From assembly GCA_963825865.1 (NCBI GenBank), contig CAWGVG010000026.1, positions 192,001 through 256,000 on the forward strand: a stretch of DNA of 64,000 nucleotides, written 5' to 3'. How positions within the stretch are numbered: the stretch's first letter is position 1; each line of letters starts with the position of its first letter. Shown piece by piece: positions 1,147 through 32,306 of the stretch. The position numbers and the translations under genes were made by a program. Under the pieces are notes generated by a model that was given only the letters and a program-made list of their open reading frames with translations, ran no database searches and was not told where the DNA came from. The stretch is from an uncultured Nitrososphaeraceae archaeon (lineage in GTDB: Archaea; Thermoproteota; Nitrososphaeria; Nitrososphaerales; Nitrososphaeraceae).

Positions 1147-2602
1147 TCATGAATGATTCTTTATCCATTGCCCTACTTTGGGCCAGAGTTCTTTGTGGGC
1201 ATTTTTTCCTATCATCAGGCCGACATGCCCTGAGTTATATTCAATGAGGCTCTTGTCATGGCTTTCTGTCAATGCATTATTAAGAGCCTTACTAGAGCGG
1301 GTGCCACTAAATCATCCTTCTTGGCCACAATATTGAGGAATGGCATATTGATATTCTTCAATTAATCAATTGCCATATCATATTCGATTATTGTTATTAT
1401 AGTCTGTCTCTTCTATTCTCATTTTACTTTTGATAAGTAAATTTTGTTTATAGCAATACTCTACGAATTCTCTGTATATTTCACCTATTATCGGAGGACT
1501 ATCATATAGCCATGTCTCTGTTGCAAAGAATTCTGCTATTGACTCTAAACTACGAGGCTGTTCAAAGAAGTGGAAATATTTATGACTATATTCAATAGGG
1601 TTTCTAAGGATAAATGCGGCATTTAACACTATCCCAGGCAGATTTCCAAATGTATCCAGAAGATAATTTTCCTTCATGGATTTAGTCCAAACAGCAAGTA
1701 AAGAATTATCAAGATCAAAATCTCCTGGTGTAGCAATAGTGATCAGATTCTTTACTTTTTCAGGATGAAGAGCAGAATAGATAAGTGCAAGATCACCACC
1801 CCAGCAATAACCAAACAAAGATACTTTATCTAGATTTCGTAATCTTTCTTATAAAATCAACAGACTTGTCCATGTATTTATTAACAAAATGACCTATCGT
1901 CAGACTCTTATCATATGCAGATGGCGTTCCCCAATCTGTTGCAAAAATATCAAGCCCAGATTAATAAATTTCCCATAACACTCACTTCGGGTAAGAGATC
2001 TAGAATATAATGTCTATTTATAAAAGCGTAGATTACAAGTATTGGAGTAGTATTCTTTTGACTTGTCGAGCTAACTTCTTTTTCAGTAAAGTAGGGTTGT
2101 AGGTTAGTAGGTGCCTATTATAACGAAATAGTGAGTAATTCTCTATCTCACAAATCTTCTGCGAAGGAGTACGATATAACGTATCTCTAATTGGCTCTAC
2201 AAAATCATTATTCCAAACTGAGGACCTATTGGATAAATGCTGATATATCTTCCCTAGACCGGTGCTTTTGGCTAATTCTGAATAGCTGGCAATAGTATCC
2301 GAAAGTGTGTTGACGAATCTTTCTTCCCTGAACTTTTCATCAAAGGTCCTACGAATTCTGCTTCTTAAGATTTTATCTAACTCAGATAGATCCTTCCAAG
2401 ACTTGTCGTATTCCGAAATTGTATTAAGATATATTGGATACGCATTCACAAAGGCATTAGACAATTCTATGTTAAATTGAGTTGAGCTTGATAATGCTCG
2501 TAAAAAAACATCAGACATATTTGTCATAAAAAATCCATCATATAAAGGAAAAATACTTTTGTTGTTATCGTATTTATCTGAAGTGAAATTGGATTTGGCC
2601 AT
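1147..2602 (-). CDS. phaC: class III polyhydroxyalkanoate synthase PhaC with long N-terminal extension (frameshifted)
   Basis: RTPS motif, PILVIYAFINRHYILDL, DWGTP, lipase box GYCWGG, catalytic Asp (KDDLV) and His (GHVGL), C-terminal LWPKVGQWI. Spread over several frames. Confidence 0.88.
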
Positions 2603-2798
2603 TATATGTTCTTCTAACTAAATCTTACCTGCCAATTACATATAAAGTTAAGAATAGAAAACTTTACATCTTTTCTTTGCTTCTTTTCTCTCAGAAGCAA
2701 GAAATAATTCTATGGCTGGTAAATACACAGCATTGCACTATATACATACTTTGTATATAGTGTCCTATTGCAGTACATACTTGGGGCGATACAAGAAA

Positions 2799-2999
2799 AT
2801 GTCTACTACTATAGGAATGCTGGTAGGAACGATATTTCTAGTGGTCCTGATGGGCAGTCTTGTTTTGATTCCTATGGCTGTATATGGCATTACTGTGGGA
2901 AGCCTACCGCCAGTAATCCCGGTACCGCCATTACCATTACCTGCACCATACCTAATCAAATACGTTCCACCATCACTCTATCAGGTAACAAGTCCATGA
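2799..2999 (+). CDS. small membrane protein with Pro-rich tail
   Basis: MSTTIGMLVGTIFLVVLMGSLVLIPMAVYG followed by LPPVIPVPPLPLPAP. Confidence 0.45.
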   Translation: MSTTIGMLVGTIFLVVLMGSLVLIPMAVYGITVGSLPPVIPVPPLPLPAPYLIKYVPPSLYQVTSP

Positions 3000-3277
3000 A
3001 GTGCTTTATTTTTTATTTTTACAAAAAACTTCAATTACATTACGCATTACATAGAATACCTTTTTTCTGGTAAATGCATAAACCTAACTTTCACAAATGG
3101 TTTTTTGTGTTGGTTTTTTTATGAGACAAGCGAATAGATCATTTTGATTCATGTCCTTATTCAATATTTGCTATATCTTCTGATTTATAAAGCGTCTATT
3201 GGTACTAAAAAGCAGCAAAATAATTTTAAACCATAACCTTTTTCTCTAATAAAGGAAGTGATAGAAACAATAAAACT

Positions 3278-3821
3278 TTGACATTTCTATATAAAAAAAT
3301 CCTTGTACCATATGATGGTTCTAAACCATCAGAAAATGCATTGCAACAAGCAATACAATTAGCTGAATCTTTCGTTTTCAAGTGGAACTACTACAGAAAA
3401 TATACAAATATTATTAATACACATAGTAGAGGAAATTCATATTCGTATTCCCAATCTCTACTTTGGGCTAAGAATACTTGCTGGCAAGTCTATGAAGAAA
3501 TTCTTCGAGGAAGTATATGAAGATATGAAAAATGAATCTTTGAAAATGCTTGATGATACGAAGAAACGAATTGAGTCAAGCATTCCTGTAAATAACAACA
3601 ACAAAAAAGATAGGACAATAGCATCTATATCTGTTAATCCCCAAGTAGTAATAGGAAATCCAGCTGAAGTTATTATAGATGTTGCCAATAATAAGGAAAA
3701 AGTAGATTTAATAATCATGGGAAGTACTAGTTTGAAAGGAATTTCCAAGGTAAGAGTTTTAGGAAGTGTTTCTCGTGCAGTATCTGAAAATGCAAATTGC
3801 CCAGTGATGCTTGTTCATTAA
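3278..3821 (+). CDS. universal stress protein (frameshifted)
   Basis: KKILVPYDGSKPSENALQQA at the N-terminus; GNPAEVII, DLIIMGS and LGSVSRAVSENANCPVMLVH at the C-terminus. Confidence 0.88.
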
Positions 3822-4818: not shown

Positions 4819-4906
4819 GTATATAAGTTAATTGCTACTAGGATGCAGTCTTAATGTCGCGATTGTTATATCTTTATCTACCTACATCTTACTGATAAGA
4901 AAAAAA

Positions 4907-5548
4907 TTACTCGCCGTGTTTCTCTGTCTGTAAATTACAAATGAATTCTCTAGAATCCATAACCAATCCATAATACTCCTTTACTTTACCCAGAGTCGAG
5001 TCGTATCTCTTTTTATTGATTGAGGCCGTAGAATCAGAAATCAGAATTACATCATACCCTCTGTTGAATGCGTCTCTTAAAGAGGATTCTACACTAATTG
5101 TTGTATCGATTCCACAGAAGATAAGTGTGTCTACCTTTATGCTCTTTAACCATACTTCTATCTCTGTATACTGAAATGCAGAATCTCTCCTCTTTATTAT
5201 TATGTGGTCTTTGTCGGTTGGCTTGATTTCATCAATGATATCCGCATCCCATGTGCCTCTAACGCAAATAGGCTTCTTCATTATCCTTTCTTCTCTGGAC
5301 TCTGGCAGAATTTTGTGGGCCTTTGTTAAAAGATCTATTCCAGACGGCTCGCGTACTGCCTGTGTATAAAAGATTGGAATTTCCGATCTCCTGCATATAT
5401 CAATGAGATGACAAACGCTACTGATCACTTGTCTGTAGTTTGAAATTTCAATTCCTAAGGCATCATAAGAACCACCCTTGCTAGCAAAACCATTTTGCAT
5501 GTCTATCACTACTAGGGCTGGAGTCACTTCGTAATTTTTTATCTTCAT
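4907..5548 (-). CDS. isochorismatase/cysteine hydrolase family protein (RutB-like)
   Basis: ALVVIDMQNGF, GTWDADII, KRRDSAF, GIDTTISVESSLRDAFNRGY. Confidence 0.85.
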   Translation of the reverse strand: MKIKNYEVTPALVVIDMQNGFASKGGSYDALGIEISNYRQVISSVCHLIDICRRSEIPIFYTQAVREPSGIDLLTKAHKILPESREERIMKKPICVRGTWDADIIDEIKPTDKDHIIIKRRDSAFQYTEIEVWLKSIKVDTLIFCGIDTTISVESSLRDAFNRGYDVILISDSTASINKKRYDSTLGKVKEYYGLVMDSREFICNLQTEKHGE

Positions 5549-5807
5549 ATTTTAGAATGCTGCCTCCATAACTTTCGGTAATAGGAATATATTGATTTAA
5601 TGGCATATGCCGCCAAGGTAGGCAACTTCCCTGCGAAATTTTACGTTAATATATATGCATCTTGAGCGACAGTCTAACGATAAATGATTCGAGTCACGCT
5701 ATTAAGAATTGAGACAATAATCAGAAGTGAAATACTAACTGGAATGCAGTGATTGGAATATAGTCTAATTATCTAAATACTAGCATATACATATTTACAA
5801 TAAAGGT

Positions 5808-5907: not shown

Positions 5908-6350
5908 TCAACTCTTCGCATAATGAGTAATCTTATATGAAGTATTTCCCATGAGAAATTCATTGGAAGCTTTCAATCCCCTGCTACCAACTACTATTGT
6001 GTCTGCCTTCTGTTCATCTGCTAAACGTAATATCTCTTCTGCAACGTCATTTCCTCTTGACTCGATTACATCTACAGAGATAGATGCGCTGATTCTTTTG
6101 CTCTTGACTCGATTACATCTACAGAGATAGATGCCGCTGATTCTTTTGCTCTTGACTTGTATTTTTGCAACAACTCTAGATCGTTTTGTTCTAATTCTTT
6201 TAAGATTGAATGGCCAACACCGACGAATTCTTCAAGCACGTGTGCAATTAGTAATCCACATCCACATTTTTTAGCCATGTAAGATGCATATTTAAAAGCA
6301 TTTTCTGCGTGCCTAGAGCTATCAACAGCAACAAGAATTTTTGATATCAT
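5908..6350 (-). CDS. universal stress protein with internal duplication, last residues missing
   Basis: MISKILVAVDSSRHAENAF ... GNDVAEEILRLADEQKADTIVVGSRGLKASNEFLMGNTSYKITHYAKS*. Confidence 0.8.
6054..6157. repeat. tandem duplication (47 + 48 bp) bounded by CTCTTGACT
   Basis: Units 6054-6100 and 6101-6148, with a third CTCTTGACT at 6149-6157. Confidence 0.95.
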
Positions 6351-6506
6351 GTGGATGTCTTTATAATTTTGTATAACTCGCAGATATATGTGTGTACGTA
6401 ATCTATAAATATTATAAATTTTATTTGTGTTCCTTTCTTCCCATTCACATTCATATTTATACAACATGGTCAAACTAAATGTGCGGAAAGTTAAGCTGTG
6501 ATCACT

Positions 6507-7110
6507 TTACCATTGCCTCATATCTCCTTCAAGCAGACCACTACCAATGTGAATTCTATCAATATGTTTTGACATTTCAGCCTTGTCCTTAAACTGCGAT
6601 TGACAATAAGGACAAATTATTTTTGTTGCCTCTCTTTCAATTACACTAGTAGGCAATTCAACTTCAGCGAGGTCTACCTTGTCGCTTGGAACATTTCCTA
6701 CTATGGACATAAGGGTTACAATTCCTGTAATATCATTACTGCCTCCTGCTTTCTTTCTTACCACCAATCTCCTAATGTGTTTGCTTCTCATCAATAGTCA
6801 CTGCATCCTTGACAGATTTTTCTTCAGCAATTGTAATTAGTGGAGAACTCATTACGTTTTTCAATGTAACCTTAAAGGGGCCTTTATTTTCAGCAACGAC
6901 ACGATATAAGATGTCTCTTTCAGTTACAATTCCAATGGGCTCATTTGAATTTTTGCCAGTAGCAACAACCATAACGCTCAAAACATCTTTATCTTTCATT
7001 ACTTTTGCTGCATCACCAACAAGAGTATCTTCAGGTAGGGTTACATAGTCTTTTTCCGCAATACTTCCAATTTTTTGCGATAGATGGGAATTTGAATACA
7101 TATAATACAT
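6507..7110 (-). CDS. CBS-pair protein with C-terminal C2H2 zinc finger (frameshifted)
   Basis: GIVTERDILYRVV, VMSSPLITI, IRRLVV; C-terminal CPYCQSQFKDKAEMSKHIDRIH. Confidence 0.85.
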
Positions 7111-7305
7111 ACAATGGGATTATAATTTATTACTATCTGTGTTTAGATGGCAGATTTTTCGATATTTGTCTATGCTGCTGTGTAGTTACAAAAGAAGTAA
7201 GCTAGCTGACGCCAAACTCTAGAATCAGCAAGAATATGCTTGTATAGTTTGGCCTTGTATCCCAGTAATTTTTGATATTTCTATTCATTTAGCACACAAA
7301 GCAAT

Positions 7306-8646
7306 TTAATTTGTAAAGTATAACTGTGACAAATCCTGTCGCACCTTGCCCAGAATCTCTGTTACCTTGTCATTACTGGTTGTTTTTAAATGACTAGTAG
7401 TCGGAGTCATCGTCATCATCGCGTCTATGGTCTTTATCATCCCTTTGGCCAGGTCTTCTGCAGAGTAGGATCTACTCAATAAATTAAGATATGTCTGTCC
7501 AACATTTAAGATATCATTCTCAGTTAAACCAAGCTGTAAAAGTTTCGTTAGCATGTTACCTGTGAAGGGACTAGCCCCAAGAATCTTAAACATATTTTCT
7601 CGCTTCTCCTTGAGTATCTGAATCTGTAAGTTGAGCCTTTCCTTCTCGGATTCAAAGCCCAGTTTAGCATCGTATTGAGTTTCTATGTCATTGAAGAACT
7701 TGTCAACCGCCAGCCAGTGGTCTATCCCGTTTGAGTTCGTAATTTCTAGTATTGTTTGGAGCAACCTTCTCAGCTTCTTTGAGCCAAATCCGAGATTTTC
7801 CAGTTGGTTGTACACAGACAGGTTTTCTGAATGTAAATTGATTGCATGTCGAAGTGAATAGTCCTGCTGTATAAGTTTTGCAAAGTTCTTTTCCATTTCA
7901 CCTATTGAGATCTCCAACGCTCGTCGATTATGAGCTAGATATTGAATGCCATCAAATTCTGCAAGCACCTTTTCAGGTTCGTATCCATATTCTGCAATGC
8001 TTCTAACACTTTTTGCAAATTTCGGAACATCCCCAGTTATGGAAATTTTATGTTTGTCCAATTCTTGCTTTGCATCAAAATATGACTTCATCTCCTCATT
8101 GGCTTTTCTTTTTTGCTCCAAAGCCCAATCCCGACCTTTTTCGCATTCTGACTTCTGCTCTTCTAAGGTGGATATCTGATCCCTTAATTCTTGCAGTTTA
8201 TAGTCCAATTCTATTTTCTTGACTGTCTGCTGATTTATGTAAGCTTCAATTTCAGGTAGTGGAACTTGATCTGAAAATTTGACAAGGCCTTCAATACAAG
8301 TGACAATTTTACTTGGCGTGGCTCCTAGCCTCTCGCATTTTTTGTATATATCAGATATAAAATGCTCAGCAGTTTCTCCGTCTATACCCTGCTCACTCAA
8401 TATTTTCATAGTTCTAAAACCAATTGCACATTGAGCCGGAGAAAGACCAGCAATTTTGAGTGATTTTGCTAATTCTCTCAGCGCATCTGCTTCATATTTA
8501 CCAAGAGTATTTGTCCACTCGTTGATTATGTTACTCACCGCCCCCGTGCTTATGTTGTTGTCCCGTGCTATGGCATCTCGGCTAAGGCCTTGGAGCCATT
8601 GCATGATAACTCGTGATTTTATCGTTTCTGGAATTGCTGCAGGCAT
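7306..8646 (-). CDS. N-terminal HTH plus long coiled-coil hypothetical protein
   Basis: Intact 446-aa ORF. WLQGLSRDAIARDNNISTGAVSNII is HTH-like; the middle is rich in heptad-spaced E/K/L. Confidence 0.8.
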   Translation of the reverse strand: MPAAIPETIKSRVIMQWLQGLSRDAIARDNNISTGAVSNIINEWTNTLGKYEADALRELAKSLKIAGLSPAQCAIGFRTMKILSEQGIDGETAEHFISDIYKKCERLGATPSKIVTCIEGLVKFSDQVPLPEIEAYINQQTVKKIELDYKLQELRDQISTLEEQKSECEKGRDWALEQKRKANEEMKSYFDAKQELDKHKISITGDVPKFAKSVRSIAEYGYEPEKVLAEFDGIQYLAHNRRALEISIGEMEKNFAKLIQQDYSLRHAINLHSENLSVYNQLENLGFGSKKLRRLLQTILEITNSNGIDHWLAVDKFFNDIETQYDAKLGFESEKERLNLQIQILKEKRENMFKILGASPFTGNMLTKLLQLGLTENDILNVGQTYLNLLSRSYSAEDLAKGMIKTIDAMMTMTPTTSHLKTTSNDKVTEILGKVRQDLSQLYFTN

Positions 8647-8705
8647 ATTCGTATTCTACTTATATAAGAAATAGTGACATCAGTTTATATATTTATCATA
8701 TGCGC

Positions 8706-9433: not shown

Positions 9434-10054
9434 TTGGATGACCAATTTGAGAATAATAATATTACTTTAAAGGAGAACTCAGCATCTCCTAGAAAGACTC
9501 GAAGCATTACCTTTAGACTAGACTCTTCTGTAATAGATGAACTGCAACGCGAAGCAGACCAAAAGGAAATATCACTTAATGTTTTAGTGAATCAGACTCT
9601 AAAAAGGTATGCAGAATGGGATAGATATGAAAGCAGAATTGGCATGATGCCTGTGCCCAAGGTAATGTTATCTTCTTTAATTGACAAATCTGTCAAAATA
9701 GCCAATGATATCGAAATCAAAGATATAGAAACTTACAGGGACGAAATTATAAAATCTGCTGCTGAAATCGCATTTAGCATAATGAAAGATTCTGTATTAT
9801 TTATGAGGAAACAATACAATTTGTGGGCAGTTCTCTCAGTACTGGAACAATACATGAATGTATCAGGAATAAAATCTGACCATAGGATAGATGGTGGTGG
9901 AAGGAAACATGTATTCATAATACAGCATGAGCTTGGTGAGAATTGGTCATTATTTACAAAAGAACTGTTGAAGCTTATCTTCGAAAACCTTGCCAAAGTT
10001 AAAGTTGAAGTCAGTATAACCCCAAACACAACTGTGGCTGAAGTTATACTTTAG
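9434..10054 (+). CDS. ribbon-helix-helix domain protein
   Basis: TRSITFRLDSSVIDELQREADQKEISLNVLVNQTLKRY is an RHH signature. Intact ORF. Confidence 0.75.
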   Translation: MDDQFENNNITLKENSASPRKTRSITFRLDSSVIDELQREADQKEISLNVLVNQTLKRYAEWDRYESRIGMMPVPKVMLSSLIDKSVKIANDIEIKDIETYRDEIIKSAAEIAFSIMKDSVLFMRKQYNLWAVLSVLEQYMNVSGIKSDHRIDGGGRKHVFIIQHELGENWSLFTKELLKLIFENLAKVKVEVSITPNTTVAEVIL

Positions 10055-10227
10055 AGAACGAATCTAATTTTTCTGATGTCTATACACGTTTGTTTTTATC
10101 AATAACAAACTTAAGCAATACAGTGCAATCCTACATATTATTTACCACGATGAATCATATAACTTGGTATGACACTAATAGTTATACAGGTAGAGGATGA
10201 ATAATATAGTCCTATCTATATGAAGCA

Positions 10228-10824
10228 ATGCTTCCATCAGAAAGGATAGGGAGGGAGTCTATTGGGATTGATAACAAATCGATCAGACTTGACTTCTCTG
10301 TAATTGGTGTTGCAGATAATGATGATGGCGAAAATATAACAATATCAAATGTAGATGATAGTTTGCGATCATTGACTGGTTTGATGGTTGATAGAAACTC
10401 TACTTATTCAGTCGTAAAGGCTTTGGGTAACCTTCGAGGAATCATCACATATGGGGATATAATTGCATTACTGGCTGAACGTATCGAGGAAAGTATTCCA
10501 GTATACATCATTGGCTTGCCAGATGATCCGTTCGATGCAGAACTGGTTAAATCAAAATTTGCCAGCATTATCAGATTGCTAAGAAAAATATCTCCAGAAA
10601 TAGAAGAAGCCAGATGCCATATAAAAATAAGAGACATAGAAGTAGAAAGAAGAAGAAGATATGAAGTTGATGCGAACATAATTACATCTTACAGAAGGCA
10701 TACATATACCAATACAGGATGGGATCTGGCAACTATATTTGATCAGATGAGCGATAGCCTCAAGAACAATCTTGCACACAGGCCATCACAAAAACAAAGA
10801 GAATCTGTAAGGCATGCGCGGTAG
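10228..10824 (+). CDS. CBS plus HPF/RaiA-like ribosome hibernation protein (HibA-like), apparently 5'-truncated
   Basis: Partial CBS (LRGIITYGDII), then IPVYIIGLP and an HPF-like region ...RYEVDANII...GWDLATIFDQMSDSL. Confidence 0.6.
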   Translation: MLPSERIGRESIGIDNKSIRLDFSVIGVADNDDGENITISNVDDSLRSLTGLMVDRNSTYSVVKALGNLRGIITYGDIIALLAERIEESIPVYIIGLPDDPFDAELVKSKFASIIRLLRKISPEIEEARCHIKIRDIEVERRRRYEVDANIITSYRRHTYTNTGWDLATIFDQMSDSLKNNLAHRPSQKQRESVRHAR

Positions 10825-11374: not shown

Positions 11375-12121
11375 TTATCCAGCATATTTGCTCATTATCT
11401 CTGCTACCTCATCATCGCTAACCTGTGAGAAGTTTTGATAAAATGCTCCAACAGCTTCAAATAATTCAGGTGCATGCAAAACAACTACCTTATCTACCAT
11501 TTGCCTTAGTTTGTTTACGGTATCCCTAGGCGCTACAGGTACTGCGACTATGAGTTCTTTGGGATTTTGCCTTCTTATCCACTCTATAGCAGCAAATATT
11601 GTTGCACCGGTAGCTATACCATCGTCAACTAAAACTATGGTTTTACCTTTTATGTCATAGTAGTGACCCTTAGTTGCTCTGAATCGTCTAAGCCGACGCT
11701 CTATTTCTTTCATCTGTGCAGATATCTGTTCGTCTATGTATTCTTGAGATACCCTTAACGTTTTAATGATGTAGATATTTGGAAAAAACGTACCATCATG
11801 CATCACAGCACCAATTGCAAGCTCTAGTTGTAAGGAGCTCCAATTTTCCTTGAAACCACAATATCTAATTTAGCATTGAGAGCAGATGCAATAACATCTC
11901 CAGTTATCACACCACCCCGAGGAATAGCGAGTATGATTAGTTGTTGTTCTTGTTGGCTATCTTTTTCTCCTCTTACTTCCATCTCGGTTAAGGACCTCAA
12001 CTTTTCAGCAAGTACATTTGCCTGCTTGTCTTCTGTCTAGAAATAAGGCACGAGTATCATTGTTGCTATTTTCTATAGTTATTTGTATCATATTATTATT
12101 TTCTTCTGAAATTGTTGACAT
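11375..12121 (-). CDS. phosphoribosyltransferase (COG1926, Rv0571c/Rv2030c-like), frameshifted
   Basis: LAIPRGGVITG, VLVDDGIATGAT, VAVPVAP, AVGAFYQNFSQVSDDEV. Confidence 0.88.
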
Positions 12122-12236
12122 GAGACTAGGATAATTATTGATTTAACAATATTATAAAAGTAGGCTTGCAGTGCAATGCACAAAATTCTAATGATTAAAG
12201 CAATGCTTTACTTGTACCATTATACAGGAATATTAT

Positions 12237-19324: not shown

Positions 19325-19531
19325 AGGTAGAAGCATTTCAAGAGCATATTTTATACTCCTTCTATTGCACCTTTCGTTCTTGTTATATGAAATCTTAACA
19401 TTTTCATAATGTTTCTAACACAGAATTATATTCCTCAAACCACATCAATATGTGTATGAGATGTTAGATGGTTCTTTCAAAAAATGGAGACACTTACACA
19501 AATTTTACAATATCAATGGAAAACAAAGAGA

Positions 19532-20575: not shown

Positions 20576-20702
20576 AGATAATAGATGAAATTGAATTTGA
20601 ATTACAGACTCAAAATATGCTATCCTTACCGCATACAAGGATAGGCTGGTATAAAAATATCCGTACTTTGGTTAGACAGTTATATCTATACCTCTGGTTA
20701 AT

Positions 20703-21635
20703 CTATTTTCTCTTGGGAGCACTTGTGTAATGTATATCTTCTTTGAATTTTTCATTTAGTTTATTCATTCTCGCTTGATAGCCTTTATTGTACTCTATCT
20801 CTTCTGGTACAAGTGTTGCAGGATGGATAAATCCTTGTTTACGCATAATCATTGCTCTCTCAGCTGCCCACATTCTTTGCAACTCCCAATCTGCCGTGCC
20901 AAAGCCATCATGAGGACCTATTAGTTTCCCATTGTGCATACTGAATACTAAACAAGATACAATTGGTATCGCATAATTTACGCTTGCTGCAGAATTTAGT
21001 TTAACAGGCATAAGAGGCATATGATGGCTCCCCCTCGTATTTCCTGATACATAATAAGGGTCGTTAAAAGCACTGCATGCTTCCTCCGTTGCTGGAAAGT
21101 TCTTTTGCGTTCTTACTATTGATATCGGATCGTCTTTGCCCACATAAGTTCCTGCAATGTTGTGTAACCTGTCAGTCGATGACGATACAATCTGTTCGTC
21201 TCCGTCAGACGATAAAATAGAATGTACTACATATCTTCCAGGATACATTAATGAAGTTTCAAGTTCAGGCTTGTCGGCCCATAGTTTTAGTTCTGCAACT
21301 TTACCAGTCATCACATCTAAGACTCGAAATATTGCTCCGGCTGCAAGTTTTTCGTTAATTAGTATGCCAGTATTACTTCTTGCATCAACAAAGGTCCTCC
21401 AGAATGGAAAATTAAAGGCACCAGGCTCTGTCTTGTCTGCAGCAAATATGCAAAAGACTTCGCTTGGACGTTCTTCCATTTCTATCTCTGCAACGCCAGG
21501 TCCCATTCCCTTTACATTACCTGAAAATGCGTCTTTTAGAAGATCTTGTCCTGCACCATAAAGCCCTTGTTCTTTTGCGATTTTCGTACCTTGTGTGAAT
21601 GCGTCCCAAGCAAGTTTGTGGATCTTTTGGTTATC
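20703..21635 (-). pseudogene. fbp: fructose-1,6-bisphosphate aldolase/phosphatase, 5'-truncated
   Basis: IHKLAWDAF...GLYGAGQDLLKDAFSGNVKGMGPG, ADKTEPGAFN, YVGKDDP, RGSHHMPLMP. The N-terminal KAD/GH/DD region is absent. Confidence 0.88.
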
Positions 21636-22106
21636 TCAGTTTTTTATGATTGTTCACGTTTATCAAAAACCTGTATGATGGTACTAGGATATACTGTGAG
21701 TACCCTCCATCATTCCACGAAGATAGTCCAGGCCACTTTGGGTTTATACATAGCTGTTCGTCTCCATTTTTACAATGAAAGCAAATTCCACATCCCCATC
21801 CTCCAAACACGGCCACTAGATCGCCTATATCTAAAACTCCTCTTGGAACAGAATTTCCTAGTTCTTCAATCCAACCCGCCACTTCATGTCCTGGCGTAAT
21901 TGGTAATTGTATTGGAATGATATCCTTCCACTGACCATTTATCAGATGTAAATCGCTGTGACATAGGCCTGCTGCTACTTTAACTAAAACTTGCTCTCTT
22001 GTAGATATCCTTGGTTTTGGAGTATTGTCTATAGATAGCGGTTTTTGGTATTCCTTGCAGAACGAATAGTGTTAGCATCCTTATTCTTGTCCGTTATTTT
22101 GTTCAT
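21631..22106 (-). pseudogene. Zn-dependent alcohol dehydrogenase, 3'-truncated
   Basis: GLCHSDLH, PGHEVAG, CGICFHCKNGDEQLC, DGGYSQY. No NAD-binding domain. Confidence 0.85.
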
Positions 22107-22383: not shown

Positions 22384-23034
22384 CTATTCTATGTTTATCG
22401 GCTTTCCTTTGGGTTTTGCCTGTTGTTTTTTGTCAAATATTATTTCAAGTATTCCATTTTTGTAAGCTGACTTGGCTGTTTCGATATCTGTTTCAGGAGG
22501 AATCTCAACAACCTCCCGGTATTTTCTTTTCCCTGGATCAGTGGTTGTTACCTCTACTGAATTACCATAAACATTTACCCTGATATTCTCTTTGTTAACA
22601 CCTGGCATTTCTACTATTACCTTGACTTCTCTATCCGTTGTTGTTACATCTGCCAAAGGCTCTCTTTCAGATGATATAAGGGGCCTAGCAGTGAGAAAGC
22701 CACCTCCTCTACTATTACTGAATTGTGATTTAACATTACCAAATTCTCTTATCCTAGGTTTACCATCAGGTCCAATTGTCATTGAATATCCATAAACGAA
22801 GGGCCCATACTCTCTCACCTTACCTCCAGGTCCTTCATATTCTTTTATTAAATCCTTTGGTGCCTTAGTCTCTATCTCTTTAAACTGTTCTTCAAATTGT
22901 CCTTCCATTTGTCTTCTCATCTCTTCCAAACCTCTGAACATTTCGCCAAAACCAAATTGCCCTCTGGCTCTACTACCACCAAGGAATCTTCTAAACCAAT
23001 CAAATGGCTCTATATCGTCGCGTTCAGAATTCAA
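22384..23034 (-). CDS. hsp20: archaeal small heat shock protein Hsp20
   Basis: GPFVYGYSMTIGPDGKPRIREFGNV, EREPLADV, EMPGVNKENI, AYKNGILEI. Confidence 0.93.
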   Translation of the reverse strand: MNSERDDIEPFDWFRRFLGGSRARGQFGFGEMFRGLEEMRRQMEGQFEEQFKEIETKAPKDLIKEYEGPGGKVREYGPFVYGYSMTIGPDGKPRIREFGNVKSQFSNSRGGGFLTARPLISSEREPLADVTTTDREVKVIVEMPGVNKENIRVNVYGNSVEVTTTDPGKRKYREVVEIPPETDIETAKSAYKNGILEIIFDKKQQAKPKGKPINIE

Positions 23035-23259
23035 TTATTATTATGACACCATCTCAAAGGTACATTGTAAAGTTATATAACAATTAGGTATACACTGTAA
23101 TGCACAATATTCATAGGCTATATATGGCTATCACATCTAGAATATGGTGGGCTATTATGACCATGACGTATGCATCAACTCTTGGACTGAATTATTTCAA
23201 AAAAAATCATCATATCGTATTTGTCATGTATGCATACAATTTACTGGAAATGATATCCA

Positions 23260-24525
23260 TTGATTAACACAAAAAAAACGACACGAGTTTTGATGGTTAC
23301 CACCGAGTATCCTCCTATGCAAGGAGGTGTAGGACGATATTCAGCTAATTTGGCAAATTCACTCCAGAAACTTGGATTGAATGTTTTTGTTGTATGTAAT
23401 GAAAAGGGTAATGGGGATATTTATGGACTATCTCCTTCCAATACACACAATTCCGATGTCCTTTTAAAGGCAATAGCCGAATCAAAACCGGATATAGGAC
23501 ATGTACAGTATGAACACGGGCTATATGGTTTGGTTTTGGATCCTATAAATCCTAATAAGATTAGTACCAACATAGATTCTTTTTATGCTAGGTGTAATAT
23601 TCCAATTGTCACAACGTTTCACTCTGCGTATAATTTCAAGCAGTGGATGGAATTGGCTGCAACAACAGAAGGCAAACATGGAATTAACAAATATATGCAT
23701 CTCCCTATCAACTATTGGAAACGCCTTTTAAATTATCGGTCCTTCAGTCGGCTCAACAAAGAAAAGCTTGCAATGAGCCGGGCAGGCATAGTTTTTTCAC
23801 AATATCTATCAAACCTCATTGGTGGCAGCAGCAATTGTTGTGATGTAATTTATCATGGTGCTGAACCATCTTCTAAAATAACTTCTCCCCCTTCCAAGAG
23901 ACATGCAAGGGCTAGGTTTTCACTCCCAGAAGGACCACGAATTGCTTTGGCACTTGGTCATAAGACAGCTACAAAAGGTTGGGATATCTTCGAGAAAATG
24001 AATATACCCGATGGATGGGTTGTAGTGGCCAATGCCTCTAGAAATCACTACAATAAGGAGAACATTAGTTTACGATTTAACAACAAGCAGAGCCAAAGTT
24101 TAATCGATCTACAAGGGGATTTCATTACTGAGGAAGATCTATCGTATCTATTATATGCTGCAGACGCTGTGATCCTGCCATATAAGGTATGTTCCGGGTC
24201 AGGTGTAATGTTTGATGGTCTTGCCCATGGGCTGCCATTTGTTGCAACGCAGTTGGGCTTTTTCAAGGAATTTTCTACAAAAGGATTAGGCATAACTATC
24301 AAGAGAGATCCTGCTGAATTTGCCTACGCTCTCAAAGCTCTTGATAAAGACTATGAAGCATACTTACAAAGAGTCAATAGCTTTAAGGAAAAACTAAAGT
24401 GGGATCTAATTGCTGCTCAACATGCTTCACTATATAGACGGATTATAAATCCAGGAACACAATTAGTTATAAACACTTTTAATTCAAAAAAAAGCATAGA
24501 TAATCAATTAGATAAGGGACATTAA
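23260..24525 (+). CDS. glycosyltransferase family 4 (GT-B)
   Basis: MVTTEYPPMQGGVGRY, HVQYEHGLY, ADAVILPY..SGVMFDGLAHGLPFVAT. Confidence 0.85.
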   Translation: MINTKKTTRVLMVTTEYPPMQGGVGRYSANLANSLQKLGLNVFVVCNEKGNGDIYGLSPSNTHNSDVLLKAIAESKPDIGHVQYEHGLYGLVLDPINPNKISTNIDSFYARCNIPIVTTFHSAYNFKQWMELAATTEGKHGINKYMHLPINYWKRLLNYRSFSRLNKEKLAMSRAGIVFSQYLSNLIGGSSNCCDVIYHGAEPSSKITSPPSKRHARARFSLPEGPRIALALGHKTATKGWDIFEKMNIPDGWVVVANASRNHYNKENISLRFNNKQSQSLIDLQGDFITEEDLSYLLYAADAVILPYKVCSGSGVMFDGLAHGLPFVATQLGFFKEFSTKGLGITIKRDPAEFAYALKALDKDYEAYLQRVNSFKEKLKWDLIAAQHASLYRRIINPGTQLVINTFNSKKSIDNQLDKGH

Positions 24526-24693
24526 TTCAGAAATTATTTTTTAGATTATATCGATGATGATGATGGCGATGGATGACGATGCAGTTCTTAATTTGCTTGT
24601 TCATTACAAGCAACATGACCATGCAATTTTTTGAACTGCATAGCGGAATAGATTCAGTATTTATAGGCATAATTAGATAGACGTATAATCGAC

Positions 24694-25733
24694 ATGAAGA
24701 CAAAACTAGCCATAAATGGTTTTGGAAGGATAGGTAGGAGTTTTATCAGAGTTGCCTTAAAAGATAGAGAATTCATGCAATTAATTGACATAGTGGGCAT
24801 AAATGATACGGCAGATGCCAAGACTCTAGCACATCTTTTAAAATATGATTCAGTATTTGGAAGATTTGACGGTACGGTAGAAGTTAATGACAATGGTAAT
24901 ATTGACATTCTTCTGATAAACAACTTACCAATAAGTGTTATTTCTGAGAAAGACCCAGCCAGCTGCCTTGGAAGAGCAAGGGTATAGATATTGTCCTAGA
25001 ATCGTCAGGAAAATTTAATGATGCAAAAGAAGCACAAAAACACATTGAAGCAGGCACAAAGAAAGTCATTATTTCAGCACCAGCTAAACAACCAGATGCA
25101 ACAATATTAATGGGTATAAATGACAAATCGTATAATAGCGATAAACATAATGTCATTTCAATGGCATCTTGCACCACAAATTGCTTGGCTCCAGTAATCA
25201 AAGTTCTCAATGATACGTTTGGTATTGAGAGTGGGTATATGACCACCACTCATGCATATACAAATGATCAGCGTCTTTTGGACTTACCACACAAGGATTT
25301 AAGAAGGGCAAGAGCGGCAATGATGTCCATAATCCCAACAACTACTGGAGCAGCAAAGGCCATAGGTGGTATAATCCCGGAGTTAAATGGGAAGATAGAC
25401 GGTATGGCGTTACGAGTTCCTGTAAGCGATGGTTCGATAGCAGATATGGTCCTGAAATTGAAAAGGGACGTCACAAGAGAACAAGTGAACAACGTATTAA
25501 AGGAAGCATCTGAAACTAAATTGAAAGGAGTTATGGGGGATACAGAAGAGCCCATCGTGTCAGCAGATATTATCGGTGATCCACATTCCTCGATTGTTGA
25601 TGGTCTAAGCACTATGGTTTTAGGAAATAACAGCAATATCGTAAAAGTATTATCTTGGTATGACAACGAGTGGAGTTTTGCCTGCAGGCTAGTCGACCTA
25701 ATAAAGTTAATTGCCCATAAGATGCAGCCTTAG
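24694..25733 (+). CDS. gap: type I (bacterial-type) glyceraldehyde-3-phosphate dehydrogenase, frameshifted
   Basis: AINGFGRIGR, LLKYDS, ASCTTNCLAP, HAYTNDQ, PTTTGAAKA, RVP, WYDNE. Confidence 0.95.
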
Positions 25734-26030
25734 TGGCGCTATTGTTATATTTTTATCAATCTTTTATTCTACCGATAGAGATTCTCCATAGTGTTTAATG
25801 AATTTCATTTTTTTATACCTGTAAATGGCGAATAAAGTCTCTGGAATCCGTAACCAATCCTCAATATTCCTTTGCCTTATCCCGAGTAGTATTTTCTTCC
25901 TCATTATATCGCTCGTGGTAAAAGCCATGAGAATGTACACATACACTTTTACTTCGCTCTTTTAAAAATATACTGGCTATTTGTATTATACTTGAAGCAA
26001 GCGCGCATAAACGGGAACATATAACTACTA

Positions 26031-27195
26031 AGTGAAGTGTCTGAATTTATGTCGTTATTTGTTCATTACATAACCTAGATTTGGAAATAGTTAAAGCTTA
26101 GCAAAGGAGATATTTTCATTCTGTGAATCATCCTTTCAAACTCAAACTTACCATAGGACAGAGGAACAAATTAAAGTCATTTATGAAGAATACGGGTAAC
26201 AAAAAAGAATACCGCAGGCTACTGGCTATACTCCAAAAAGCTGAAGGTAGAACTTACGAAGACATAGCAAATGAACACGGAGTCAGGCAGCAGGTCTGTA
26301 CAGAGATGGGTTGCTGCCTATATCCAAAGTGGGATAGATAGAATAAAGATGAAGAAACCTGGCGGAACAAAATCTGGCATAACAGATGAAAACAGAGAGA
26401 TTATTCTATCAGCATTATTTAACGACCCGCACATCTTTGGTTATCTTAGAAATACATGGAGTCTGAGATCACTTGCAAACTGTCTGACAAATGAGCTAGG
26501 AATCCCAATCAGTTTCAAGCACATGCAGCGAATAACAAAAGATTTAGGAGTTAGGTGCAAAAGGCCAAAACTGGAATTGCTACATGGAGGAGAGGATTAT
26601 GAAGAGGGAAAAGAGAAAGTGCAAAACTACAAACAGATAGCTTCAGCTCTGAAAAAAAGGGAGTTGTAGTAGCATTTGAAGATGAGACTATTATAACACA
26701 GAAACCTTGTATTCGAAAATCCATGAGTTTTGAAGGTGAGCAACAAAGGATAGAACATACTGGTAGTAGAAAGAAGTTCTCTGCATACATATCCATGGTA
26801 TGGCCTGAAGAGAAATTAATGACGTATGATTTCTATGATAAAATGGATTCTACGAATACTATCGACCATCTAGAGAATCTCAAGACAAACATTATGAAAA
26901 ATGATTGGTGGAAAAGACTGGTACTCATATGGGATAACGCTTCATATCATGTAAGCCTAATGGTACGGAATTATATCAATGCACAGAGAAAGAAGACTGG
27001 GCTGACCATAATCCACCTTCCAAAGAAAGCACCATACCTAAATCCGAATGAAAGGAAAGTAAACCAGCAAATAAAGTCAGATGTATGTGCGAATAGATTC
27101 TATGAACATATGGAAGACCAGAAAGCTGCAGTATCAGAATATTTGGACAAACGATTTGGAAGATGGTATGACGACATTAGTTATGACACTTGACT
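26031..27195 (+). mobile_element. IS630-family insertion sequence with TIRs and TA duplication
   Basis: HTH/winged HTH plus DDE (FEDET, WDNASYH, PYLNPNE). TIRs AGTGAAGTGTCTGAATTTATGTCG vs AGTCAAGTGTCATAACTAATGTCG. TA at 26029-30 and 27196-97. A7GGG slippery site near 26652. Confidence 0.92.
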
Positions 27196-28384
27196 TAGGA
27201 GCAATATATTCTATTCTATTAGCGTAAATCGTATTGATTTGATCAAGACCAGGATCAATCCTCAAAGGGTTTTTAGCATTCATTATGTTATTATCATATA
27301 TTTTATTGGCAGAGGAATTGCTAACTAAAACAATACCCGATTTGCCATTTGAAACTGTATTGTTGTATATCTCATTATTGTGTGACCGAGAAACGTGAAT
27401 AGCCCTATTCTGATCATATATATAATTGTCCCTGGCAATAGAATTAGTCACATTTCTACTAAATGCTATTCCAGATCCTGTGTTATTGTAGACTACATTT
27501 TTTTCAAAAAGTATGTTATAGCAATCTTGCGAACAGATTATAGCTGTACCATTATTATTATATACAGTGTTATTTCTAATTACCATATCATGAGTTCCTG
27601 TATGTGGATCTATGCCATAATGACCCATATCATGAACTTTATTGTTTTCAATAACCATGCCTCCTACACCTACTGAATAAAAGCCAAAATATAGATGGTG
27701 TATATCATTATTTCTTATTACACTACCATGTCCTGCCAAATGATAATGAATTCCAGATGTTCCAGTACCCCATCCTCCTTCATACCCTAAATATGCAATC
27801 TCTGAGTTTGTAATATCTGTTGTACCTGTTGCTTCCTTTTCTACTCTAATATATGGCCTTGGAGCTCCTGGATGAGTTATTTTTCCAGAAGTTTCTCTTG
27901 AACCATAACTTTGACCATAATCATTTGTTTGTGGATTCCATGAAGTTACCTTTACCGAATCTATCTTCAGGCTACCAAATACTTCTATTGGATATGCAGT
28001 CGTTCCATCTGCTATTATTTTTAACCATGTAGTATCTTTGGAATCAACGATAAATGTGGCGTCATTAGCAATTGTGATCCCTGCATTTAGCAGCCAGACT
28101 CCGTCGGCTTGTTTGTCTAAAACACTATCATCGTTAAGCTGATTGTCTATATCACTTAGACTTGTTGATTTACATCCTATTGTAATTATTCTACCAGAAG
28201 AGTCATAGCTAATGCAGCTTTCATTAGAGGAAGTTGAATTAAGAGCATTAGACTCAGTGGTTATTGTCATCTCTTGTGCGACCGCAGGATCAATAAAAGC
28301 CAATAAAGTTAATGGAAGAAACGTAAATAAAACATATCTCAGAGGTGAAAAAAATGTTTTACTTTTCAAATGGACTGTTACCAT
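27134..28384 (-). CDS. secreted right-handed parallel beta-helix protein, AlgG/NosD-like
   Basis: Signal peptide, NSEIAYLGY, YGIDPHTG, repeated I.NN.(V/I)YNN. The 3' end runs into the IS630 element. Confidence 0.8.
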   Translation of the reverse strand: MVTVHLKSKTFFSPLRYVLFTFLPLTLLAFIDPAVAQEMTITTESNALNSTSSNESCISYDSSGRIITIGCKSTSLSDIDNQLNDDSVLDKQADGVWLLNAGITIANDATFIVDSKDTTWLKIIADGTTAYPIEVFGSLKIDSVKVTSWNPQTNDYGQSYGSRETSGKITHPGAPRPYIRVEKEATGTTDITNSEIAYLGYEGGWGTGTSGIHYHLAGHGSVIRNNDIHHLYFGFYSVGVGGMVIENNKVHDMGHYGIDPHTGTHDMVIRNNTVYNNNGTAIICSQDCYNILFEKNVVYNNTGSGIAFSRNVTNSIARDNYIYDQNRAIHVSRSHNNEIYNNTVSNGKSGIVLVSNSSANKIYDNNIMNAKNPLRIDPGLDQINTIYANRIEYIAPKSSVITNVVIPSSKSFVQIF

Positions 28385-28795: not shown

Positions 28796-28947
28796 CGCCA
28801 CTTAGTAGATAAATTCTGCTTTCTCAAGAAGAAAATTTTAGCATAGTCTCAAATGATAACTGTTGTGAGAAATCATATTCGACATGAGATATTAAGCTAG
28901 GTTGGTCTACTATAAATTAAAAACACCTCTTTTCAGTGCGACTTTGG

Positions 28948-29615
28948 TTACTCTGTTTTATCATCTTCAAACGCCTTCGGGAAATATTTTCTTATGACTT
29001 TGTCCATATCAATTTTCAGGAAAGTATAGATAATGATAATAGTAATCGAAACGCTAACAATTATTGATATTATAATATTGAATGGGTCAATGTTATTATT
29101 ATTATTGTATGCAAACCTATCAATAAAGGGTTTACCTAAATAAACTGCTCCCCATATAACTATTTCATTTATAATGAGTTTACTTGCAAACGTAGAGATA
29201 ACAAATTTCCATGGACTGTATCTTGCAAGTCCTAAAGAGACATACACGATATCGTCTGGTATTGGTGTTATTGCAGCAATAATTGCGCCTTCCAACCGTA
29301 CCTACTAGCTAATTTTTGAAGAGGAATTATTTTTTTCTTAATAGGGCTTCCTCTTTTAAGAAAGATATTGTGTCCATAATATATTGAATAAAAAATTATG
29401 GTCTTTGCTATAATTATTCCAATAGCACTACATACTGCAATAAAGTTTGGATTTAGTTTTTTATCAAATACTGATATAACAAGAATAGGATATACGGGAA
29501 TTGGGACGAATATCAAGATATTTGTAATAAAGCTTACAAGCAGTATTCCAAAATATACAAACTGATTATCTAGTAATTCAAATGGTACTATAGCGTCCTC
29601 AATATTAAATGCCAA
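28948..29615 (-). CDS. DedA/VTT (SNARE-associated) membrane protein, frameshifted
   Basis: IFVPIPVYPIL, AAITPIPDDIVYVSLGLARYSPWKF. Confidence 0.8.
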
Positions 29616-30124
29616 CGATAATCATGACTACAGAGACTCTTAAGTAGATTCCGAGGTATTGTAGCATTAGTGCTAGGATCAATTCCAGATGATCTTCCTC
29701 ATAGAGGTATTCTTGAATTCATTATTGTTAAATCACACACAAGTGGAAATATCCGCACCATAAAGACTAACTATTTCCACTAGATCGACCAAAACCAAAT
29801 TCGTGCTCAAAATTAGTTCAAAACTATCATAGCTAAATGGAGATGGAGGAAATAGTGGAAATATTTTACTAACTCTTGTTGCGAGGAATAAGGAGTACAT
29901 TGGAAGCATTAGTAATAACTGGAAATTAAAAAATTGGGATTAAGACATTTTTACCACAGTAGCATAAGAAGCATCTGGCAGCGACATAGCAACATTTCAG
30001 TGCATTCTTCCAATTTAAATAACCTTAATCCATACAGGACAAATTGAATGTGATTCGCAATTACCAAAAAAAATATTATTATATTTTGAAGTGATGTACT
30101 ATATTAAAAATAAAAAAGATAATC

Positions 30125-32306
30125 ATGAATCCACAAACAAAACCTGCAGAAGTAAGAGTAGATTTTTCATTTAAGAGAGAAGTATTCTTCATCGTTGCTG
30201 GAGCCCTGATGGGTGCCATAGTTATGGCAATTCCCTTTACCTTTCCTTTTACAGGACGTGGTTCAGGATATGCGCTCACGTGGATAGTATTTGGGCACAT
30301 TGTTGGTGTATATTCGCCCATCTCATCGGTTATTATTGCTGGAATATTAATTCACATAGTAACTGGTATCTCAATTGGTATAATATCTGGAGTATTTTTG
30401 TATAAGACAAACATCTTGAATATAAGTAAACCATCAAATGGTTTACGCTATGGATTATTAGTTGGTACTCTTGTTTATTTGATTTTTGCTATTCCAGTAG
30501 GGCAATTTCTTCTAAATCCAGAATTTGGACATACTTTGTCAAACGGTGGTAATGTTGGTAAAAATAACAATAATAATAATAACGTTAATGTCAATAACAA
30601 CATAGCAGGCTATAAAGAAGAAGAAAAAAGTTCAACAGGACAAAGCGGAGGAGGAGGAGTAGAAAGAGGAAAACAGGTAGAAAAGACCTAACAACATGAC
30701 AACAACGTTCTCAAATATTCAATTGAATTCTACAATCTATTCTATTTCGATTAACCTGCTATTTGGAATTACATTAGGCCTATTTTCTTCCTTTTTGTCA
30801 ATAAAGTTCGGCTCCAGATATAGATGTCCTGCTTGCGATATATCATTTTCAAGAATTGACATTCTTCAGAGTCATTTAGAGCATGTCCATGGTGACAAGC
30901 CAATAAATAGAAAAAGAATAGTTGTTTTAGGAGGAGGATTTGCAGGAGTCAGCTGTATTAAGAAAACTGCAAACGAAATTTCAAACTAATGTAGGTATTG
31001 AGATTACAATGGTAAGTAAGGATAATTACATGCTATTTACACCCATGCTTCATGAAGTAGCATCAGGAATGATAGAAACAAGGCATATTGTGACACCTAT
31101 CAGAGCATTTTGTAATAGGTCACGATTCTATTCTGCCATAGTAGAAGATATAGACCTAAAAAATAAGAAAGTTATGATTAGATCCTCCACATCCACAAGT
31201 AAAACTGATAGATTAATAGAGGATCATATTTCGGAATTGAACAGCACTAGGTCTTTGTATTACGATTATCTTGTAATAGCGTTAGGAAGTGAAACAAAGT
31301 TTTTTGGAATGTCTGATGCACAACAAAATGCATTTACTATAAAGAGCTTAGATGATGCGATAAATCTTAGAAATCATATTATATATTTACTTGAACAATC
31401 AGACCAATTGCCTGACAACGATACCGCCACTACCAGTAATAATACTTACAAAGATCTTCGAAAAAAATTGTTAACTTTCGTTGTAGTAGGAGGAGGTTTT
31501 GCAGGAGTAGAAACAGCAGGCGAAATAAATGATTTCGTTAAGGATTCTGCAAAAGATTATTACCATAATATAGATTCAAACAACATAAGAACTATACTAA
31601 TACAATCTGGTGACAGACTATTACCAGAAATGAGTGCAGAATTAGCCGCGTTTGCGTTAGAGAAACTACGTAATAGCGGAGTTGAAGTTATTCTCGATAC
31701 TCGCATAGTGGGGGCCACATCAAATAGTGTAAAGTTAGGTAATGGTACTATAATACCAACAAGGACAATAGTTTGGTCTGGCGGTGTATCTCCTAATTCT
31801 CTAATCGCTAATCTGCCATGCCAGCATGATAAGAGTGGAAGAATAGTTGTCGATAAATATTTGGAAGTATCTCAGTTTAGAAATGTTTATGCACTTGGAG
31901 ATTGTGCTTATATAATAAATCCTAATACAGGTAAAATATACCCTACTACAGCACAACATGCTATAAGAGAAGGTTCTGTTGTAGCAAAAAACATCGTTGC
32001 ACAATAGAGGATAGAAGATTAGATGACAGACAGGCATTTGATTATAAAACAAAAGGCATGATGGCTAGTATAGGAAAGCGAACTGGTATAGGCAATTTAT
32101 TAGGAATAGAAGTTCAAGGATTTTTAGCATGGTGGATATGGCGCAATTATTATCTGGCAAATCTCCCAACATTACAAAAGAAGATAAGAGTAATGTCAGA
32201 CTGGATGCTAGATATGTTCTTTAAACGCGATGTAACTATGTTCAAAACATTTGTTGAAGAAAAGAAAAGGGAATTAAAACCAAAATGTCTTCTGTGTAGA
32301 AAGTAG
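30125..32306 (+). CDS. ndh: membrane domain, C2H2 zinc finger and type II NADH dehydrogenase-like oxidoreductase fusion (frameshifted)
   Basis: N-terminal TM helices; CPACDISFSRIDILQSHLEHVH followed directly by IVVLGGGFAG; FTPMLHEVASG, VVVGGGFAGVETAGE, ALGDCA, AQHAIREG, AWWIWRNYYL. Confidence 0.85.

Follow-up and report, generated by a model that had tools for sequence, protein, structure and literature searches.

Do the stress-related genes that lie side by side in a soil ammonia oxidiser form a unit, and what could switch them? We addressed this question in a stretch of 64,000 nucleotides (nt) from an uncultured Nitrososphaeraceae archaeon (assembly GCA_963825865.1, contig CAWGVG010000026.1, positions 192,001 to 256,000; the whole stretch is called the window below), whose first part carries genes for universal stress proteins (USP), CBS-domain proteins, Hsp20, a thermosome paralog and several dehydrogenases and metabolic enzymes. 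Our analysis argues that positions 1-32 kb of the window, together with at least 7 kb upstream, are probably a copy of a stress-gene neighbourhood of the Nitrososphaeraceae, with a 14-nt element, TGCAnTGCAnTGCA, as its putative operator and a ribbon-helix-helix (RHH)-like protein encoded in the window as the predicted binder. The stress-gene cluster is real and conserved, and the 14-nt element is new: a literature search found no paper describing the cluster as a unit, and a literature text search with the 14-mers did not find them.

The genome holding the window (G000; the other family genomes are G001 to G018, and C-numbers designate contigs, the window lying on C26) spans 4.98 Mb in 62 contigs, with a completeness of 81.8%. 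The initial annotation had raised the clustering of these gene families as a point to be checked by synteny, and here it held well: the same families are neighbours in at least three other genera of the family (G001, G008, and G014) and form a non-random, conserved neighbourhood. The G001 island (1,336-1,376k) comprises genes for a P-type ATPase, five USPs, a PhaC-like protein, an M50-CBS protein, GAPDH, NAPRTase, GH130, GT4, and FBPase, along with two Hsp20 genes and three more CBS genes. On contig C14 of G008, M50-CBS, phosphoribosyltransferase, GH130, USP, GAPDH, and GT4 genes are found with two Hsp20 genes and five more CBS genes. The G014 island (1,576-1,616k) holds eight CBS and four USP genes, Hsp20, a zinc-dependent alcohol dehydrogenase (Zn-ADH), a PhaC-like protein, DUF488, hemerythrin, ferredoxin, and nitroreductase genes, and further a C2H2 zinc finger, a thermosome paralog, and PhaE/PhaC. 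Window proteins have counterparts at 33-86% in these three islands, and USP genes are concentrated there, 7 of the 24 G001 matches lying within 57 kb and 4 of the 12 G014 matches within 22 kb. Gene order is not preserved, and at the DNA level the phosphoribosyltransferase, thermosome, and CBS parts of the window match different contigs in most relatives. In G000 itself, the island extends beyond the upstream end of the window (C26:184.6-192k), where a CBS gene and a USP fragment are accompanied by an intact AAA_33 kinase beside a 342-aa open reading frame (ORF), a USP, a CBS-zinc-finger gene, and another USP.

The element came from a palindromic dyad scan in which upstream regions from the G014 island were set against 160 kb of that genome. 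The dyad TGCA-N1-TGCA occurs in 21 of 50 island upstream regions versus 1 of 174 in the background (Fisher 7.6e-15), and TGCA-N6-TGCA in 12 of 50 versus 0 of 174; both are parts of the single 14-nt element, which consists of three tandem TGCAN units. All 13 exact copies in the 2.83-Mb genome of G014 lie in promoter gaps within the 29-kb island (1,579,134-1,607,744), which has 20 sites when partial two-unit copies are included. They neighbour CBS, USP, Zn-ADH, Hsp20, PhaC-like, and P-II genes, a multicopper oxidase/zinc-finger pair, and the gap between PAC2 and thermosome genes, within ~100 nt of ORF boundaries and often 6-13 nt after a TATA-like box. Since their flanks vary from site to site, the element is not a mobile repeat. 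A likeness of such TGC-rich sites to the bacterial PhaR literature, found by a 9-mer text search, was taken as coincidence.

A census of the 19 family genomes, with the reversed pattern as control, recovered the element in 10 of them, with 41 sites in all versus a single control site. Outside G000 and G014 there are 25 sites, and our count of gene neighbours covers 20 loci corresponding to 21 of these, the remaining four being two on C14 of G008 and two in G004 and G011. The 31 ORFs facing sites in these six other genomes include nine CBS ORFs, six USP ORFs (five genes), and one CBS-USP fusion, 16 altogether, with one each of Zn-ADH, VTT, OsmC, receiver domain, DUF2382, and Pyr_redox fragment; nine have no Pfam family, one of them being the RHH-like gene. 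In G000, just three exact sites were found, two located before CBS genes (C26:184686 and C15:174213) and one in the window before the thermosome paralog (coordinates of the window features are collected in the table below), the element being not found at the other four G000 thermosome loci. Allowing at most one mismatch gives 18 sites in G000 versus 4 for the control, nine of the 18 in three USP/CBS blocks. The window further contains three motif-like sites with two mismatches beyond the region of interest (1147-32306), at 40563, 41373, and 49857.

The RHH-like protein is the candidate regulator. Its family counts 1641 homologs, none of which bears a protein name and which are labelled 'Nitrososphaeraceae archaeon' wherever an organism is given. 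CopG_antitoxin, HicB, RHH_1, and RHH_7 profiles match at residues ~20-65 in four of four homologs, all of them sub-threshold (best E 5.5e-06, 27.5 bits versus a 28-bit cut-off), and RHH-domain structures (PutA, Rv0298) match residues 22-69 of the structure model at Z 4.3-4.4, with a strand pLDDT under 50. The C-terminal domain of ~140 aa is highly conserved; fold searches gave no convincing match to it, and the protein atlas gave only unnamed Nitrososphaerota clusters. The fold searches returned mainly de novo designed proteins; matches to H-NOX (Z 5.0 and 4.5) and TRAPP/Bet3 (Z 4.9) were below a trustworthy level and were discarded. Inside the G014 island, a 71-72% ortholog immediately follows the CBS-zinc-finger gene; one site precedes the latter, and another is located 10 nt beyond the stop of the ortholog itself. 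Orthologs in G002 lie within ~850 nt of sites at two loci, and those of G015 are 198 nt and ~2 kb from sites, also at two loci. We propose a model in which the 14-nt element would act as an operator bound by the RHH-like protein through its N-terminal ribbon-helix-helix, the Nitrososphaerota-specific C-terminal domain would sense a signal, and the gene set of the island would be switched together during growth arrest. Elsewhere in G000 (C15:169429-171016; L066), a gene with an adenylate/guanylate cyclase domain directly precedes an RHH-like paralog, and the block around them includes CBS and USP genes as well as two to three motif sites; this arrangement hints at a cyclic-nucleotide link.

Several observations weigh against this model. 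The orientation of sites relative to the neighbouring gene is inconstant, and 9 of the 19 family genomes have no exact site. The window has one exact site, the promoters of USP gene A and of the CBS-zinc-finger, RHH-like, four-CBS, and GAPDH genes being without the element, and its two-mismatch sites (eight versus one for the reversed control) are weak. The motif is absent from the G001 island, where the dyad scan gave nothing with at least five occurrences and inspection of 21 upstream regions revealed no TGCA repeats. As most promoters in the region of interest and G001 lack the element, evidence for a regulon is thin here and strong in G014, G002, and G015. A promoter-proximal motif common to the genes in some relatives is the reverse of the missing shared motif that would have counted against the initial annotation, although most promoters in the region of interest do not carry it. 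Concerning the regulator, the structure model of the RHH-like protein is mediocre (pLDDT 66), with the strand region unmodelled. The family gives 0-14 matches per genome (none in G010, which is 72% complete), so that its adjacency to sites could partly be due to chance. Close orthologs (56-62%) occur without the motif in G001, G005, G012, and G018, and one or two sites occur in G011, G013, G016, and G017 with only 27-38% RHH-like relatives; hence, protein and motif presence do not track cleanly. Given this imperfect co-occurrence and the varying number of matches per genome, the pairing of protein and element is an inference rather than a result. Finally, our literature search found no expression study of the island genes.

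The window genes look broken, 10 of them being split over two to four frames and two more, FBPase and ADH, truncated. To put this in proportion, 400 kb of the complete relative G001 provided 123 ORFs of 250 aa or more for a comparison with G000, in which 64 of them have a good counterpart (at least 45% identity and at least 70% coverage). Of these 64 conserved genes, 24 are split over at least two frames, mostly without a second locus, and in the conserved coding sequence of the genome a frameshift occurs about every 2.5 kb. The split genes, 23 of the 24 being named, include glmS, cytochrome b, guaA, purA, purP, heme o synthase, pckA, cbiH, cobQ, and a 2-oxoacid:ferredoxin oxidoreductase subunit. 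The organism is present in soil and rhizosphere metagenomes from 8 studies, and an ammonia oxidiser found so widely cannot lack all these genes; most frameshifts are therefore assembly errors. In G000, just one ORF reaches 1000 aa, and 149 reach 500 aa. Frame switches fall on GCWGC more often than expected (6 of 24 junctions versus 0.96, the highest count among 1000 shuffles being 6), and the thermosome, GAPDH, and VTT breaks are located in such contexts; as a sole error context, GCWGC was rejected, because it accounts for just these 6 junctions. The window thermosome has 82% DNA identity with the intact copy on C39, from which it differs by six 1-nt indels (five inserted A/T and one deleted T). 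In pairwise comparison, the insertion sequence (IS) copies that are 99% alike show 0-5 gap letters versus 2-8 mismatches. Among the 12 indel rows listed out of 153, metagenome contigs from four runs of four studies carry an extra T behind 12340 that restores the thermosome frame, and one run loses a base at 12488 with the same effect. In runs X1 and X2, about half of the contig depth found at 12340 agrees with the frameshifted version of the window, and the loose end of an X5 contig at 12237 matches the sequence upstream of the C39 paralog; as contigs matching there may stem from paralogs, they leave this frameshift question undecided. Altogether, the broken look of the window genes is mostly assembly indel noise, and the G000 record should be treated as an unpolished long-read-like assembly, whose 'pseudogenes' and 'fragments' are not to be read as biology at such a frameshift rate. 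What the initial annotation described as fragments and remnants is, in this light, largely artefactual.

Redundant stress and central-metabolism paralogs decaying after duplication would give the region a similar look, and the density of 10 split and two truncated genes within 32 kb, the intact second copies of thermosome (C39) and FBPase (C60), the half depth of X1 and X2, and a thermosome frameshift density ~9 times the genome average all point that way; this density, not accounted for by plain random error, also weighs against our reading of the breaks as noise. Nevertheless, we hold a real graveyard of pseudogenes to be very improbable: across the genome, essential single-copy genes show splits at a comparable rate, the thermosome has a dN/dS of 0.078 over 542 codons when read in the C39 frame across its out-of-frame stretches, i.e., no relaxed constraint, both GAPDH copies of G000 are split, and the splits cluster at GCWGC. 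The IS insertions, for their part, are real, on top of the indel noise. Three IS fragments or copies interrupt the region; contigs of three metagenome runs lack the copy at 19528-20576 and join 19528 to 20576 (depth of 63-314 there), and the IS630-like element, of which 11 contigs carry another 12 near-full copies at 97-100% identity, looks recently active. Multi-copy IS elements are among the arguments for regarding the stress genes as accessory cargo of mobile elements, copied around the genome without a chromosomal regulon. Almost all window genes have paralogs (60-95%) at other places in G000, in blocks on C3, C5, C15, C20, C43, and C56; G000 has 22 integrase matches versus 3-4 in two relatives, two of the 22 lying 5-10 kb beyond other USP/CBS blocks; and UspA, three CBS arCOGs, Zn-ribbon, and CopG/RHH rank together among the 20 commonest arCOGs of thaumarchaeal integrated elements in the available excerpts of PMC6563490. 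In contrast to such elements, the window and the islands of G001 and G014 yielded neither integrase nor conjugation genes: the nearest integrase (PF00589) on the window contig is 71 kb off, attachment sites not having been searched for, and none comes closer than ~70 kb to the G014 island or ~160 kb to that of G001. Moreover, the core content recurs in four genera beside housekeeping-type GAPDH, FBPase, and thermosome genes. Cargo of integrated elements may explain the many paralogous blocks in G000, and we consider it a rather improbable account of the neighbourhood as a whole.

The DosR regulon of Mycobacterium tuberculosis consists of scattered loci under a NarL-type response regulator and heme kinases, with a 20-bp Dev box. 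The initial annotation had seen the region as the archaeal mirror of this regulon, that is, a hypoxia/dormancy programme induced by low oxygen. The likeness in family content stands and is wider than was listed there: besides the USP, CBS-only, Hsp20, phosphoribosyltransferase, and NDH-2 genes of the window, the relatives' islands contain an M50-CBS protease, a P-type cation ATPase, NAPRTase, nitroreductase, ferredoxin, and hemerythrin. According to the excerpts of PMC7753917, DosR-related genes include the phosphoribosyltransferase Rv0571c, the USPs Rv1996 and Rv2624c, ctpF, the zinc metalloprotease Rv2625c, and the CBS-only protein hrp1. Hsp20 (hspX), a P-type ATPase, nitroreductases, and ferredoxin are further families shared with that regulon. 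The obligate aerobe Burkholderia cenocepacia has a low-oxygen locus of the same make-up (excerpts of PMC3721108). What did not hold is the regulator. In G000, no GerE/NarL-type match to PF00196 rose above the cut-off, the best one (E 0.0011) being on another contig, and the single one in G014 lies ~520 kb from the island. Low oxygen as the signal, a dormancy programme, and polyhydroxyalkanoates taking the place of triacylglycerol gained no support here. Among the ORFs scanned in the window and in the G001, G008, and G014 islands, no triacylglycerol synthase, nitrate genes, or DosS/DosT equivalent appeared. The motif is unlike the DosR sites presented in the excerpts of PMC7753917, and USP, CBS, and Hsp20 are generic stress families. 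Furthermore, the Hsp20 and thermosome responses of ammonia-oxidising archaea are tied to energy or ammonia limitation, not to oxygen, in the portions available of PMC13674081 and bioRxiv 10.1101/175141; as a signal, such limitation is at least as probable as low oxygen. A dedicated low-oxygen programme of the DosR kind thus appears unlikely.

By its design, the closest analogue of the Nitrososphaeraceae island is the lxa locus of B. cenocepacia. As described in the excerpts of PMC3721108, lxa is one chromosomal cluster of an obligate aerobe that combines several USPs, an alpha-crystallin small heat-shock protein, polyhydroxyalkanoate synthesis, alcohol turnover, and a nitroreductase, with incomplete synteny among relatives and 17 intergenic motifs, compared with 13 exact and about 20 partial ones in the G014 island. 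G014 likewise displays a single cluster in which several USPs and a small Hsp come with a recurrent intergenic motif, the window having one exact site. The two systems differ in that lxa is bacterial, has a motif (TGA-N6-TCA) of the FNR/Anr type, and was measured to be induced at 6% oxygen (same excerpts), whereas the island described here is archaeal, has three tandem TGCAN units and an RHH-like candidate, is dominated by CBS-module genes, and is known from sequence alone. As for these genes, the excerpts of PMC13324472 propose CBS-module proteins as archaeal ribosome-hibernation factors, 'often arranged in gene clusters', and place standalone HPF/RaiA-like proteins mostly in DPANN and Nitrososphaerales. 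The four-CBS module is shared with the HibA protein of that source, which differs by a C-terminal HPF/RaiA domain (residues 270-392). We could not confirm the CBS-HPF fusion proposed by the initial annotation: PF02482 has no match in the window, and the four-CBS frame ends at 16016, right behind the fourth CBS domain. The best genome-wide PF02482 match (E 0.157) is on another contig; the archaeal domain is divergent, and a remote likeness in a shifted frame is possible. By analogy, the CBS-module proteins would fit a role in quiescence.

The gene content of the window was established by a Pfam profile search of all 167 stop-to-stop ORFs of at least 55 aa in positions 1-34.5 kb (see the table). 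It matched the phosphoribosyltransferase, thermosome, Hsp20, FBPase, type I GAPDH, and NDH-2 that had been named from the sequence, as well as a CBS-pair gene and a four-CBS gene. The proposed PhaC corresponds to a PhaC-like alpha/beta-hydrolase, the pieces of which have 64% and 35% identity to one 522-aa G001 protein and 42% to a PhaC_N-bearing 464-aa G014 protein; a paralogous block (80-84%) lies on C15 (14.1-15.3k). Two of the three USP genes or fragments were recovered and the third was not found within the region, more USP genes lying just upstream. The Zn-ADH is present as its ADH_N part, the remainder after ~residue 157 missing. No COG2187 remnant was seen, and the COG0645 remnant had no Pfam match; it has 81% identity to part of the intact AAA_33 gene upstream (C26:189.1-189.6k). 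Within USP gene B, contigs of three metagenome runs omit 58-64 nt at the ~59-nt tandem duplication. The CBS and zinc-finger pieces that follow are one frameshifted gene, since both align to a single 289-aa ORF of the G014 island (47-50%); an intact 201-aa paralog lies just upstream of the window (C26:190.6-191.2k). The adjacent HTH_23/coiled-coil gene, with 17 matches elsewhere in G000 (best 88%) and no counterpart in the relatives' islands, is possibly a mobile insertion.

Features of the window in the order of their positions (pieces of split genes are given with the gene)
Feature	Position	Strand	Remarks
PhaC-like alpha/beta-hydrolase	1381..2617	-	Two frames (1381-1848, 2036-2617); Abhydrolase_1 match
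USP gene A	3230..3818	+	Two frames; Usp profile positions 2-28 and 70-141; 86-95% paralog on C15
Isochorismatase-family hydrolase	4910..5551	-	Intact; PF00857 E 2.7e-39
USP gene B	5911..6506	-	Two frames; Usp matches; ~59-nt tandem duplication 6060-6177
CBS-pair + C2H2 zinc-finger protein	6510..7119	-	CBS piece 6775-7119, zinc-finger piece 6510-6797
449-aa HTH_23/coiled-coil protein	7309..8655	-	Weak HTH_23 match; multi-copy
RHH-like protein, ~140-aa conserved C-terminal domain	9434..10051	+	Intact ORF; candidate regulator
Degenerate motif-like site	10114..10127		Two mismatches; between RHH-like gene and next ORF; weak
Conserved hypothetical protein	10210..10821	+	62% identity to end of 464-aa CBS protein gene of G008 island
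Phosphoribosyltransferase	11378..12036	-	Two frames; Pribosyltran matches; 56-61% to that of G008 island
Exact TGCAGTGCAATGCA element	12167..12180	+	6 nt after ATTATAAAAG box, 57 nt before thermosome ATG
Thermosome paralog	12237..13900	+	Cpn60_TCP1 in 3-4 frames; six 1-nt indels
Four-CBS module protein	15127..16016	+	Three frames; 40-48% identity to four-CBS genes of G014 and G008 islands
AAA_33-type kinase remnant	16361..16735	+	81% identity to part of intact AAA_33 gene upstream on C26
IS copy, DDE_Tnp_4/HTH_Tnp_4 fragments	19528..20576	-	Pfam
FBP aldolase/phosphatase (FBPase_3)	20706..21635	-	Residues 67-364 only; full-length intact copy C60:129055-130143
Zn-ADH 5' part (ADH_N)	~21634..22071	-	Aligned over about residues 19-157
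Hsp20	22387..23034	-	Intact; PF00011; 56-62% identity to Hsp20 of G001 and G008 islands
GT4 glycosyltransferase	23254..24522	+	Intact; 48-50% to GT4 adjoining GAPDH/FBPase in G001 and G008
Type I GAPDH	24673..25730	+	Two frames; frame change near 24960 at AGCTGCC context
IS630-like element	26029..27200	+	DDE_3/HTH_32 (HTH_23/HTH_32) matches
VTT/DedA-family membrane protein	28951..29621	-	Two frames; VTT gene faces motif site in G013
Trio: ORF, C2H2 zinc-finger protein, NDH-2	30095..32303	+	NDH-2 30931-32303, two frames

Further along the window, FBPase lacks residues 1-66, and its remnant abuts that of ADH at 21635/21637. This ADH 5'/FBPase 3' junction looks like a real break but may be a misassembly; the pair of ADH_N fragment and Hsp20 recurs on C43 and C56, which suggests a duplicated rearranged module or a misassembly. 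In the relatives, GH130, GT4, and a mannosylglycerate-synthase-like GT2 stand beside GAPDH/FBPase (G001 L029 13322-16622; G008 L031 18047-19027 and L032 9689-11848), a group that suggests a compatible-solute or sugar-glycerate branch within the island. The ORF/C2H2/NDH-2 trio recurs at 75-91% identity in G009, at 64-77% in G002, and also on C20 of G000 itself, and seems to stand apart from the USP/CBS core.

The survival of soil ammonia oxidisers through ammonia starvation, in anoxic microsites, and on drying is little understood, and neither a stress regulon nor a regulator seems to have been defined in them. The conserved neighbourhood described here now offers a defined cis-element and a candidate regulator, which make the question of co-regulation testable in cultured relatives. 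Going beyond the stress-gene neighbourhood with its predicted operator and binder, the genomic pattern could tentatively be read as a dedicated quiescence regulon, a possibility that we regard as doubtful, in which a Nitrososphaerota-only RHH sensor acting on tandem TGCAN operators would jointly control USP, CBS-module (possibly acting in ribosome hibernation), small-Hsp, thermosome-paralog, ADH, and carbon-storage genes. If true, such a quiescence regulon would have been invented by archaea and would have converged in function with the DosR and lxa systems of bacteria.

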